In this document: positions 18,895-47,496 of the stretch, one piece after another
Position numbering within the stretch: the first letter of the stretch is position 1
Layout: every line of letters starts with the position of its first letter
Source of the DNA: Gemmatimonadota bacterium
GTDB taxonomy: Bacteria > Gemmatimonadota > Gemmatimonadetes > Gemmatimonadales > GWC2-71-9
Direction: 5' to 3'
Length of the DNA: 47,496 bases
Assembly: GCA_039588295.1 (NCBI GenBank)
Contig: JBDHAB010000036.1
Location: forward strand, 1-47,496
Position numbers and translations under genes: made by a program
The notes under the pieces: generated by a model
Database searches by the model: none
Seen by the model: only the letters and a program-made list of their open reading frames with translations
What the model was told of the DNA's origin: nothing

Positions 18895-20918
18895 CTACCT
18901 TGCCGGCCGAATCCGAATTGCTTGCCCTCCCCCGGGAGCCAACGAGAGGGTGAGGCGCGACCCCGCGTCGACGGTGCGCTGGGAGATCTCGATCGATAGC
19001 GGGTTGTGCAGCCAGTGTGCCCCAGGCCCGTCCGCATAGATTTCGGCTACATAGCTCTGGCCGGGGACGAGGAACGAGAGCGGGATCTCCAACGTGCGTG
19101 CTTCCTCGTCCGTGATTGCTCCCACGAACCATTCGTCCCCATCACGCTCCTGGCGCGCGACCACCACGTAGTCGCCGATCTTCCCGTCGAGCACGCGCGT
19201 GTTCTCCCAGTCGACCGCAACGTCCTGAATGAACTGGAGCGCGGGCTGCTTCTCGTAGTTCTCGGGCAGGTCGGCCGCCATGTGGAGGGGCGAGTAGAGC
19301 ACCACGTAGAGCGCAAGCTGTTTCGCGAGCGTCGTGCGGAGCCGCGGTTGCTCGGGCCGACGAGGGCTGCCGTCTGCGCTCTCGATCAGGATGTCGAACA
19401 CCCCCGGTGTGAAGTCCATGGGCCCGGCCAGCATGCGCGTGAAGAAGAGGATGGTCTCGTGCTCCGGAGGGTTGCCACCGTCGCCCGCCCATGCGTTGAA
19501 CTCCTGCCCGCGCGCCCCTTCGCGCGTCATCATGTTCGGGTACGTGCGATCGGTTCGTGCACATCGAGCATAATTCCGTGCCGCGCGGCCGACTCAATCA
19601 CTTTCCTCCAGTGGCGCACCATGTACTGTCCGTGGTGAGCGTGGCCGTGGGACGTCTCATCTCCCACATATCCCGTCTTCACCGCTTCGATCCCAAGTTC
19701 CTCGAAGAGCCCGAATCCGTCTTCGAGCTGGCGCTCATAGTTCTCGATGCCCATCGAAGTCTCGTTGTGCCCGACCAGCCCCACGTTACGCTCTTTCGCG
19801 TAGGCAGCGAGCGTGGGCAGGTCGTAGTCGGGATACGGTTCGGTGAACGAGAACGCGTCCGCGTTGTCCATCCAGTTACCGTCCCACCCCACGTTCCATC
19901 CCTCAACCAGCACCCCCCCAAACCCATTCGCGGCCGCGAAATCGATGTACCGTTTCGTGTTTTTGGTGGTCGCTCCGTGTTTGGGCCCCGAGCTCCAGGT
20001 CATCGTGCCGATATGCATTCCCCACCAGATGCCGATGTACTTCATCGGTTTGATCCAGCTGGCATCGTCGAGCACGTTCGGCGGATTCAGATTCAAGCCG
20101 AGGACCGACGGCGCGAGACCCGCCGCGTTGTCGGCCATTTGGATCGTGCGCCACGGGGTAACGAACGGCGTGCGGCCCCGGACCAACATTCCGTCGGCCC
20201 ACGGCGCGAGGTACGCACGTAGTGTTCGGTTTTGCTCACGGCCGCCGACCAGTGTCAGTCCGGCGTAGTCCACCAAGTGAGCCTCGTGGATGACGAGGTG
20301 CAACCCGTCGCGGAATTCCATCGTGAGCGGGGTGTGTACCGTATCTAGCGTGCTCACCGGTGATGAACGGAACAAGTACTCGTACCGGTTTGGCTGGAAC
20401 GCAGGAATCCACCATGCCCTTGCATCGTCGGCAATCGCAAACTCGGTCAGTTCGGCAGTGATTTCGAACTCTCCAAGGTTGGGCTGCTCCGGCAGCTCGT
20501 ACCGGAAGCCGACGCCGTCGTTGAATACACGGAACACCACCACGAATTGCCGGCCGGGAGGCGCAGCTTCGGCCACGACGAGTCTCAGCTCGTGATGGTG
20601 ATCCCGCACACGTGCGACCTCACCCCACACCTGTGTCCATGTCTGATCGACCATCTGCCTGGTGGTATCTACCACGCGGAGGCCGTCGCGCAACGGCGGC
20701 GCTCCACGGAACTCAAAACCGAGCCCCGACGGCAAGAGCACCGCTCGGCCATCACGTTGAAGGCTGTAATAGAACTTGCCCTCACGGATCTCGACGGTGA
20801 CTTCGTTCCGACCGTCGGGCGAGGCAACGCGGGCCTGGTCTTGCGCAGAGGCGGTCGCCGCCATCAGCGTCGCGCAGGTGACGAGTGCGAAGCGACGAAC
20901 CGTGCAGCGCATCCTCAT
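18895..20918 (-). pseudogene. GH97 alpha-glucosidase (SusB-like), split by a frameshifting deletion near 19550
   Basis: N-part (19530..20930): KYIGIWWGMH, EGWNVGW, HNETS, KTGYV, LDVHEPI. C-part in another frame: RTYPNMMTREGARGQEFNAW, FTRMLAGPMDFTPG, AADLPENY. The usual ~6-residue linker between HEPI and RTYPN is missing. Confidence 0.85.
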
Positions 20919-20999
20919 TGGTCTCTCCATTCACATTCGTGAGGTCAGGAGCCCGTGCCGGGTCCGAGCGGCGGCCCGGGGACTGGCGTATCTTACATT

Positions 21000-38396: not shown

Positions 38397-38537
38397 GTTC
38401 AACGGTTCTGCATGACCTGCAAGTACCCTGACCGCTAGCCACCCGATGGGCGAACGTATTTGTATCACCGCCAGGCGCACAAACCAACGGTTCCCTTTGA
38501 AAGGTACGCGCTCGACACGTGCGCACGCGTGTTAGGC
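38397..38537 (-). repeat. attC site
   Basis: Minus strand R'' GCCTAAC (38537-38531) ... R' GTTGAAC (38403-38397). Confidence 0.7.
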
Positions 38538-38540
38538 CAG

Positions 38541-38639
38541 TCATGACACCTGAGGGATCTGTATGAGGTTGCCGCAGGCGTCCTCGAATACGGCAACGAT
38601 GGCGCCACCCGCATTAGCCGGCTTCGCGGTGAAGACCAC
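38541..38639 (-). pseudogene. 3' remnant of a VOC/glyoxalase-family cassette gene
   Basis: Translates VVFTAKPANAGGAIVAVFEDACGNLIQIPQVS*, the typical VOC C-terminus; no 5' part present. Confidence 0.65.
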
Positions 38640-38662
38640 GCATGTTAGACACCAGCCCAATC

Positions 38663-38938
38663 TCACTTGCGTTTCCGCCTCGCACGCACCTCGCGCAACT
38701 GAGCATGTACACGGCCCGCGGACACGGCCATGGCGATCGCTTGGACGGCGCCAATCTCGTCGTCGGTGATGCCTTCGTCCTTGGCCACGCCAAGGTAGGA
38801 GTCCATTCAGGGATAGCAGCCCACCGCCATGGCAGTTGCCAAGTGGATCATGAGCGTTGTCTTCGGCTCGAGGATCTTGTTGTGTCGAGCTGATTCATAG
38901 AAGGCCGCGTACGCCTGCTTCTGCTCTTCCGGTAGCAT
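38663..38938 (-). CDS. Cassette: AhpD/carboxymuconolactone-decarboxylase-like selenoprotein (CxxU), 91 aa
   Basis: Hand translation MLPEEQKQAYAAFYESARHNKILEPKTTLMIHLATAMAVGCYP-UGA-MDSYLGVAKDEGITDDEIGAVQAIAMAVSAGRVHAQLREVRARRKRK*. In-frame TGA at 38809-38807; GAGG RBS; R'' box GTCTAAC follows the stop. Confidence 0.82.
38779..38795 (-). promoter_or_regulatory. Putative bacterial SECIS hairpin
   Basis: CCUUGGC-GUG-GCCAAGG: perfect 7-bp stem; the loop starts with G, 18 nt after the UGA. Confidence 0.72.
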
Positions 38939-38959
38939 GGTGTTCCCTCGCGGAGTGCC

Positions 38960-39087
38960 GTCCAACGATTCGCGCCCAAGCTGCTGGCGGAATGACTCAC
39001 CATGGGAGAAGATGGGGACCGAAGTAGGAGGCTGTCCAGCTACACGATCGTGGTATCTCGGAAACAGCAGCGCGCCAGTTGGTGGAC
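38960..39087 (-). repeat. Degenerate attC site
   Basis: R' GTTGGAC intact; the R'' side is mutated with an internal deletion relative to the 45771 site; shares CATGGGAGAAGATG with the 47267 site. Confidence 0.65.
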
Positions 39088-39684: not shown

Positions 39685-39821
39685 GTCTAACGGTTCGCGG
39701 CTAAGCTGCGCGCGCACTCCGTCGTCGCGCAAGCGGAAGCCAAACGGTCGCGAATAGTCGTGCGGAGGACAGCCATCCCTTCCCCGACTCACGCCGCGGC
39801 AGCTTCAGGCGCGTGTCGGGC
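39685..39821 (-). repeat. attC site (R'' mutated)
   Basis: Plus strand GTCTAAC GGTTCGCGGCTAAGCTGC ... GCAGCTTCAGGCGCGT GTCGGGC. Confidence 0.8.
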
Positions 39822-43737: not shown

Positions 43738-43811
43738 GCCTAACGGTTCCGCTAAGCGACGGGGCCAAAGCGAGCAGTAGGACAGCCGTCCGCTTCAGCC
43801 GGTAGTTAGGC
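43738..43811 (-). repeat. Intact short attC site (74 bp)
   Basis: Minus strand GCCTAAC TACCGGCTGAAGCG...CGCTTAGCGGAACC GTTAGGC, with complementary R boxes and an extra base on the L'' side. Confidence 0.9.
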
Positions 43812-45770: not shown

Positions 45771-45910
45771 GCCTAACGGCGCGCGCCTAAGCTGCGTGCG
45801 TGCTCCTCACTGGCTTCTTGATGCCTCAGACAACAGTGATGTTGCTTGGCTCACAAACCAACGACCTTCCTCTTTGACCTCGCGCCGGCAGCTTCATGCG
45901 CTTGTTGGAC
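45771..45910 (-). repeat. attC site (140 bp)
   Basis: Plus strand GCCTAAC GGCGCGCGCCTAAGCTGC ... GCAGCTTCATGCGCTT GTTGGAC. Confidence 0.88.
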
Positions 45911-47266: not shown

Positions 47267-47384
47267 GTCTAACCCTCAGCGCCTCAGCTGCGTGCGTGAT
47301 CGATCATCATGGGAGAAGATGCAGCCCGAGCGCCGGGTCCGTCCAGCCGAGTGAACACAGCTTCCTTCGAATCGGCAGCGCGCG
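47267..47384 (-). repeat. attC site interrupted by an IS
   Basis: R' GTTAGAC intact; homologous to the 38960 site until it breaks at GCAGCGCGCG. Confidence 0.7.
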
Positions 47385-47496
47385 GGATCTTCCCTCGGTT
47401 TCGTAGACACCCGTGTTCTACGCCGCGCGCGACTCGTAGTCAACCGGCGAACAGTACCCCAGTGCGGAGTGCAACCGTCGGTCGTTGTAGTAGCGC
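47385..47496 (-). mobile_element. Right end of an IS3-family element (transposase C-terminus + terminal IR-like sequence)
   Basis: Minus strand RYYNDRRLHSALGYCSPVDYESRAA* (47495-47418), then GTGTCTACGAAACCGAGGGAAGATC. Confidence 0.85.

Follow-up and report, generated by a model that had tools for sequence, protein, structure and literature searches.

We consider it probable that the window (the whole stretch of 47,496 nt analysed here) carries an intact selenoprotein gene that was brought in as an integron cassette. The attC site of this cassette is now truncated, the gene is probably fixed in its present position, and its product would work through selenocysteine (Sec) in an arsenic-linked relay. 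The gene is encoded on the minus strand, where an open reading frame (ORF) running from an ATG at 38938 to a TGA stop at 38663 codes for 91 residues plus the stop and is interrupted by a second, internal TGA at codon 44 (Table 1). An earlier note on this DNA, which gave no strand, had described a 91-codon frame missed by the ORF track with a TGA within a CxxC motif. This was borne out on the minus strand, and the mechanical ORF list indeed lacks the frame; the plus-strand frame at 38663-38938 was rejected, as its translation is nonsense and no gene lies there. The context of codon 44 is G-C41-Y-P-U44-M, followed by AKDEGITDDEI, and CMD-like sequence was found to continue past the TGA, as the same note had proposed: the Pfam CMD domain PF02627 spans residues 7-75, across the TGA (E value 1.8e-11; 44.3 bits compared to a cut-off of 23). 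With PF02627 over its cut-off and a CxxU motif, the gene falls within the definition of a CMD-like CxxU selenoprotein that is tabulated in a review (PMC13188914).

Table 1 Features called on the minus strand of the window, with the basis of each call.
Feature	Positions	Strand	Basis
Predicted CMD-fold CxxU selenoprotein gene (P0001), 91 aa	38663..38938	minus	ORF, Pfam, NCBIfam, homologue alignment, structure model
In-frame TGA, codon 44, predicted selenocysteine	38807..38809	minus	homologue codons
Predicted SECIS, 7-bp stem and GUG loop, overlapping codons Y48-D54	38779..38795	minus	folding and conservation
Likely ribosome-binding site GAGGGAA, 4 nt upstream of the ATG	38943..38949	minus	read from sequence
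Core site R' of the cassette, GTTGGAC, 21 nt upstream of the ATG	38960..38966	minus	sequence; L'-R' half score
Upstream attC of the preceding cassette, with a canonical right and a degenerate left half (R'' GTCCACC)	38960..39087	minus	fold, model R1
Inverse core R'' GTCTAAC, rest of attC missing	38644..38650	minus	sequence
Glyoxalase/VOC-family gene, 3' fragment adjoining the truncated attC	38541..38640	minus	phmmer
Degenerate, probably chimeric attC (GCCTAAC ... GTTCGCC)	38449..38537	minus	7.2 bits, E 2.3, filters off
Near-intact attC of the array	39685..39821	minus	49 bits; in model training set
Intact attC of the array	43738..43811	minus	bottom-strand fold z -2.33; 61 bits, in training set
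Intact attC of the array	45771..45910	minus	51 bits; in training set

Reading of the internal TGA and the downstream hairpin

Homologues were collected as 168 DNA loci, namely the window, seven relatives from the phylum, the best 80 of 205 genome matches and the best 80 of 390 metagenome matches, a sampling by best matches that favours the nearest relatives; removal of identical genes left 152 distinct homologous genes. Codon 44 was TGA in 162 of the 168 loci and TGC or TGT in six, while TGG, TAA and TAG were never found, although the search pattern used for genomes and metagenomes permitted W at this codon. The distinct genes gave the same picture (TGA in 146, Cys in six, TGG in none), so that both of the homologue types the earlier note had proposed to look for, Cys and TGA, were present. 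The terminal stops of the same TGA genes are mixed (TGA 57, TAA 54 and TAG 34 among 145 countable genes), so the internal TGA behaves unlike a stop codon. Compared to its nearest homologue (L027), the window gene showed a pS of 0.52 and a pN of 0.075 before the TGA, and a pS of 0.56 and a pN of 0.096 after the hairpin described below; within the hairpin codons, pS was only 0.16. Codon 44 is likely read as selenocysteine, judging from these comparisons.

Two other readings of the TGA were weighed. The earlier note had held Trp homologues to be evidence against a selenoprotein, and the protein database seemed to contain them, with Cys in 80, Trp in 39 and Leu in one of the 120 listed proteins at position 44. 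However, translation of the TGA as Trp is contradicted by the absence of TGG from the DNA loci, by the use of TGA as a terminal stop in the same genes, and by the peptide that the hairpin encodes, Y[LF]G[VE][AT][KRE], which occurs in 36 of the 39 W proteins but in one of the 80 Cys proteins. We infer that the 39 W proteins are TGA genes translated with code 4, apparently on short contigs, which makes them a trap for Cys/Sec screens, and we give the Trp reading practically no chance. The second reading, raised in the earlier note itself, is a split gene, in which the TGA is a true stop and the next ATG restarts a second peptide of 47 residues. An ATG does follow the TGA directly in 138 of the 146 TGA genes, but Met45 is simply a conserved residue (117 of the 120 listed database proteins and all six Cys genes), the other eight TGA genes carry CTG, GTA, GTC or TTG instead, codon 44 is never TAA or TAG, and a break at this point would cut the CxxC motif. 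The split gene was rejected on these grounds as highly improbable.

The predicted SECIS element supports the selenocysteine reading. The hairpin CCUUGGC-GUG-GCCAAGG has seven pairs and the G-initiated loop of the perfect hairpin reported before, but the 18 nt given there as its distance from the TGA apply to the loop; the stem begins at 11 nt. Taken alone, the window hairpin is not more stable than shuffled sequences (z -0.4 to -1.9), and its weight as evidence therefore comes from its conservation across homologues. At least six of the seven pairs were found in 145 of the 146 TGA genes (all seven in 130) and in none of the six Cys genes, and the apical loop starts with G in every TGA gene (146/146). 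Pair 13-27 is C-G in 96 and U-A in 47 of the TGA genes, pair 12-28 is C-G in 131 and U-A in 11, and synonymous positions of the stem hardly vary: the alanine codon there is GCC in 138/146, whereas the commonest codon at three control alanine positions reaches at most 67, with usage spread over four codons. When the hairpin columns were left out of the tree, the site of pair 13-27 changed 11-14 times and that of pair 12-28 changed 5-6 times; a search for phylogenetically independent covariation yielded just one or two independent contrasts on branches with good support, which is not enough for a sign test. Overall, it is almost certain that SelB of the host would bind the GUN-loop hairpin that begins 11 nt after the UGA and insert Sec, which would place a C41-x-x-U44 pair where helix 3 begins.

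The six genes with a Cys codon (L082, L086, L097, L103, L106 and L113) all belong to one supported Geobacteraceae group nested among TGA genes in the midpoint-rooted tree; the group lacks the hairpin, four of its six members adjoin hgcAB, and it likely represents a Sec-to-Cys reversion. A second, more distant CMD-family gene, in its CxxC form, was seen at L111:4505-4816, and such a gene lies near the CxxU gene in 4 of the 152 loci. Among 72,556 plasmid records, a single one matched, a 2.1-Mb Photobacterium replicon with an unannotated 48% homologue (NZ_CP119424.1:421194-421451), while 187 pattern matches in viral contigs contained no relatives.

The genome that carries the window (96% complete) holds all four of the Sec genes that the earlier note had suggested looking for: a tRNA-Sec (selC; 75 bits) and selA, selB and selD, each over its cut-off. 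The selD gene carries a TGA of its own, followed by a hairpin with a GUC loop. Across the genomes tested (50 of the 80 genome loci), selA was present in 42 of 45 TGA carriers and in all five Cys carriers. One of the three TGA carriers without a selA match has selB and tRNA-Sec; the other two have no selB over cut-off and tRNA matches only near the threshold, all three being metagenome bins of unreported completeness. One of the latter two is flagged as unpublished and counts in this tally alone. The proposal that the gene works only in Sel-positive hosts is consistent with these numbers, but within the phylum they are a weak test, as selA was found in 321 of 401 Gemmatimonadota genomes, one of which is flagged as unpublished; this makes co-occurrence uninformative there. 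The selenoprotein gene itself was found in 8 of these 401 genomes and in none of the four other genomes of the genus. Elsewhere in the host genome (G000), 19 tRNA genes are clustered on one contig (G000:C14:47647-63751), including an unusual tRNA-His(atg) call. Taken together, the codon-44 counts, the hairpin conservation, the low pN and the host Sec genes strongly support the hidden selenoprotein that was proposed at the outset.

Integron context in the window and in other genomes

The gene is flanked by both parts of a cassette boundary, as the earlier note had read from the sequence: the ORF starts shortly behind an attC core (GTTGGAC) and is followed by an R'' box (GTCTAAC) that begins 12 nt after the stop and is complementary to the core at 6/7 positions. 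The L'-R' half at the core scored 16.7, compared to 12.4 for the 99th percentile and 16.6 for the maximum of shuffled sequences; the left-half score at the R'' box fell below the threshold. The upstream attC folds with its two ends paired (z -0.56) and was undetected by the attC model R1, even with filters off. Behind the gene, just 6 nt separate the R'' box from the glyoxalase gene fragment, so that the own attC of the gene has no L'', L' or R'. This fragment matched residues 121-151 of PDB 4G6X in a phmmer search (E value 1.5e-4) and gave no match in a Pfam scan. From about 38.4 kb to the contig end, the window consists of unrelated minus-strand genes among attC sites, with the Pfam assignments CMD, SnoaL-like, GH1, FG-GAP, phosphoribosyltransferase and ATC hydrolase. 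The attC sites were detected with model R1 after three hand-made genome scans had been given up, of which one was too strict (1 match), one returned mostly noise and missed the window sites (120 matches) and one was narrow (8 matches, two of them real).

An integron integrase (IntI) over its cut-off was found on another host contig, C3, where one cassette behind it runs off the contig start. The orientation of this integrase would fit the head of the window array, and an end-overlap comparison of C3 with the window contig (C36) found no sequence linking the two. In the host (G000:C3:1-1790) as well as in G406 (L198), the integrase gene is codirectional with the cassettes, the first of which lies behind its 3' end. 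Several further observations were made on the host. Two more attC sites (G000:C54:14418-14560 and G000:C86:4972-5106) each lie among partly eroded sites. Contigs C3 and C83 share 114 identical nucleotides (G000:C3:1-114 and C83:1-114), each copy directly after a minus-strand GCCTAAC box, which is probably a repeated element inserted at attC sites. By eye, an IS3-type element seems to have entered an attC at the contig end: positions 47267-47496 of the window resemble the 3' end of such an element, and the right half of the attC survives at about 47267. Outside the array, a GH97 glycoside hydrolase at 18895-20930 is broken by a frameshift or an assembly error into two ORFs that overlap each other, covering Pfam positions 1-162 and 173-274.

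The cassette origin of the gene, as part of the mobile integron cassette proposed earlier, is supported by the core pair, the attC array and the relatives described below, but the mobility of the window copy is not: because its own attC ends right after R'', this cassette-derived copy is probably no longer mobile. The truncation itself is observed; a deletion after R'' that took the L boxes and R' would, in our judgement, quite likely have made normal single-cassette excision improbable, and excision of the gene together with its neighbours through the intact upstream attC sites might still occur. One could go further and regard the window copy as a silent relic, a genuine selenoprotein gene left behind at the distal end of an array that is decaying and lacks a promoter. 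The attC sites on either side are damaged, a gene fragment lies behind the gene, no sigma-70-like promoter consensus was found between 38400 and 40400, the integrase is on another contig, and the IS-like end seen by eye interrupts the array at the contig end. Against this, the frame, the start, the ribosome-binding site and all seven hairpin pairs are intact, and pN/pS relative to the nearest homologue is about 0.15 before as well as after the TGA, a value averaged over both lineages. We consider a silent relic unlikely and retain an intact gene as the preferred reading.

Relatives in other genomes were examined with an attC-half test, in which position-weight scores were compared to the 99th shuffle percentile and 146 of the 152 genes could be evaluated on both sides. 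Halves over the threshold were found beside 12 of the 152 genes, of which 11 were retained; L157 was dropped as a cassette copy because its score was at the threshold and it lacked an RYYYAAC box. The flanking sites of L062, L054 and L171 are part of the attC training set, those of L043, L120, L139, L063, L192, L027, L030 and the window gene are outside it. As 141 of the 152 genes have no attC half-site, the family is, by its sequence context, mostly an ordinary chromosomal gene for which cassette life is the exception. Complementarity of core and inverse core was complete (7/7) in L062, L054 and L027, the nearest homologue showing a perfect GTTAGAC/GTCTAAC pair. A complete own attC follows the ORF in L062, L054, L043 and L120, and in L054 and L062, the latter from Ca. 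Deferrimicrobium, complete attC sites lie on both sides of the gene.

The flanks of the 168 loci contained no IntI, while a whole-genome search found IntI in four of the seven cassette-bearing genomes. The genome of L062 (G406) has an uninterrupted IntI at the head of an array in which 22 attC matches fall within 18.5 kb. The selenoprotein gene forms the 12th cassette of this array and is bounded by the core GTTAGCC and the inverse core GGCTAAC; this intact cassette makes excision and Sec insertion directly testable. A close sister of the L062 cassette, L043, lies on a contig binned as Bacteroidota and is directly followed by a 58.8-bit attC. In this bin, no selA and no selB over cut-off were found; L043 may have been transferred into a host that lacks Sec machinery, or its contig may be mis-binned. 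At L043 and L199, a cassette with a Deferrimicrobium-type attC was seen between insertion-sequence-like ORFs.

How often the gene was captured was estimated on a gene tree of 150 genes (two of the 152 lacked the full stretch), with the set of cassette copies fixed before the tree was seen. The 11 cassette copies need at least six changes on this tree, with or without the hairpin columns, and a single clade of all 11 was rejected (p-AU 1.2e-5). Most simply, the six changes would be six captures; older captures with later loss of attC could also account for the pattern, the gene being short and the deep branches weak. It is very likely that an integron integrase inserted the gene as a package bounded by a GTTRRRY core and an RYYYAAC inverse core, and that the family was captured in this way several times. 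Because relatives adjoin cassette recombination sites in several unrelated bacteria, integrons are likely to have spread the selenoprotein. The broader proposal, to which we give an even chance of being right, is that integrons are a recurring route for spreading selenoproteins. In this view, an arsenic- or mercury-linked CxxU redox gene, whose short SECIS lies inside its coding sequence and hardly differs between phyla, would have become a cassette on six or more occasions and travelled between lineages that use Sec, as a plug-in that is active only in hosts with SelABCD and selenium. Repeated capture would be one concrete way for selenoproteins to have spread patchily from phylum to phylum.

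Fold, gene neighbours and candidate function

The structure model (pLDDT 91.5) consists of four helices, with C41 placed just before helix 3 and U44 at its start. The nearest solved folds were 3BEY, TM1620, RclX and lpg0406, with TM scores of 0.75-0.77 to 3BEY and RclX. In the alignment, Leu29 and Tyr48 occupy the positions of the RclX Glu and His that flank the CxxC motif, which we take to be the proton-relay or catalytic residues of AhpD. Leu29 is found in 139 and Tyr48 in 151 of the 152 genes, and the Cys forms have L, F, Y, V or M at position 29 in 80/80 cases and never His at position 48; Asn20, Thr28, His32 and Pro43 are near-invariant. The score for the AhpD core model TIGR00778 was 12.8, below the cut-off of 27.8. 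The AhpD/CMD-like assignment made in the earlier note holds for the fold, by the model and its matches to solved structures, but does not extend to the catalytic Glu and His of AhpD, which are absent. Five catalytic residues are mentioned for AhpD-type enzymes in PMC7950407.

Arsenic resistance (ars) genes lie within 2.5 kb of 30 of the 152 genes, hgcA, hgcB or hgcC beside 17, and either beside 41 (raw counts); among genes with at least 2 kb of flank, the proportion was 36/128. The ars neighbours were arsM (16), arsC (9), acr3 (7), arsR (6) and an ArsP-like permease (6). None of 14 cassette-type copies had ars or hgc neighbours. The host genome encodes two ArsM homologues, ArsC and an Acr3-like gene, all on contigs other than the window, and gave no HgcA or HgcB match.

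From these data, we propose that the protein would cycle between a selenenylsulfide and a thiol/selenolate form and act as a small reductant or as a relay for As(III)- or Hg-thiols together with ArsM, and not as an AhpD-type peroxidase; we regard this proposal as evenly balanced between right and wrong. A more tentative explanation, to which we give about one chance in three, accepts the same gene and the same cassette origin but sees a general oxidant-defence enzyme, a peroxide or HOCl reductase like RclX or AhpD, in which selenium replaces the missing proton relay and the ars and hgc neighbours reflect oxidative stress caused by metalloids. This would be consistent with the nearest solved folds listed above, with the protection against HOCl and HOSCN that PMC7950407 describes for RclX, and with the 111 of 152 genes that have no ars or hgc neighbour. 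However, Glu and His are gone from the Cys forms too, which argues that Sec is not their replacement, and fusions with ArsM and MduS exist as curated families. We favour a thiol/selenol reductant or metalloid relay for ArsM-type chemistry over a general oxidant scavenger, at the even odds stated for it. Either way, the missing AhpD relay and the ars/hgc neighbours suggest a testable function for a family without one.

Comparison with known systems

The protein family and the recoding mechanism are already known, and what is new is the integron cassette as their vehicle. In line with the earlier note, which had described CxxU CMD-like selenoproteins as known, a Sargasso Sea survey of 2005 (PMC1088965) described a CxxU selenoprotein with a CMD domain, and the 2026 review (PMC13188914) tabulates a CMD-like one with PF02627. 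A literature search that left out most subscription journals and supplements returned no report of a selenoprotein-bearing integron cassette. Term searches of the text at hand found no "integron" in the same review, in the BSepDB paper (PMC13326102) or in a 2022 preprint (10.1101/2022.07.06.499078), and no AhpD/CMD or selenocysteine in a preprint on hgcAB regulators (10.1101/2022.10.17.512643); the cassette set described in PMC1382264 includes a selenocysteine lyase, which is not a selenoprotein. Selenoprotein cassettes would be invisible in cassette catalogues, as the gene callers behind these either end the frame at TGA or take it for Trp.

The window gene shares with the CMD-like CxxU selenoprotein, as far as the accessible text describes it, a PF02627 match over cut-off, the CxxU motif, Cys homologues and a G-loop hairpin just after the UGA; the likeness is drawn at the level of PF02627 and CxxU and not by a match to the published example sequences, and the window gene adds the integron setting. 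Its best NCBIfam matches were MduS (NF045649; E value 5e-14), ArsM/AhpD (NF041537; 2.9e-12), the GSU3128 "distant AhpD homolog" (NF041047; 2.2e-9) and TIGR04169 (4.5e-6), all below their cut-offs (scores against cut-offs of 52/380, 46/510, 37/110, more exactly 37.3 for the GSU3128 family, and 27/120). MduS and ArsM/AhpD are fusion selenoproteins of which the C-terminal domain was matched, whereas the window gene is a stand-alone domain that has no NCBIfam model of its own at cut-off. As a point of likeness with the ArsM/AhpD fusion, stand-alone genes of the window family are often neighbours of arsM (16/152 cases). With AhpD, RclX and lpg0406 the protein shares the four-helix CMD fold and a CxxC/U motif at the same place, but their Glu and His are replaced by Leu29 and Tyr48, and His32, Pro43, Asn20 and Thr28 are near-invariant instead.

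A cluster of attC sites without an adjacent integrase is known as a CALIN. Like integron cassettes and CALINs, the window has a single ORF between core and inverse core and an array of attC sites on the same strand, and G406 provides the complete integron. The window gene differs from ordinary integron cassettes in its truncated attC, in a cargo that needs the recoding machinery of its host, and in a recoding signal that lies inside the coding sequence.
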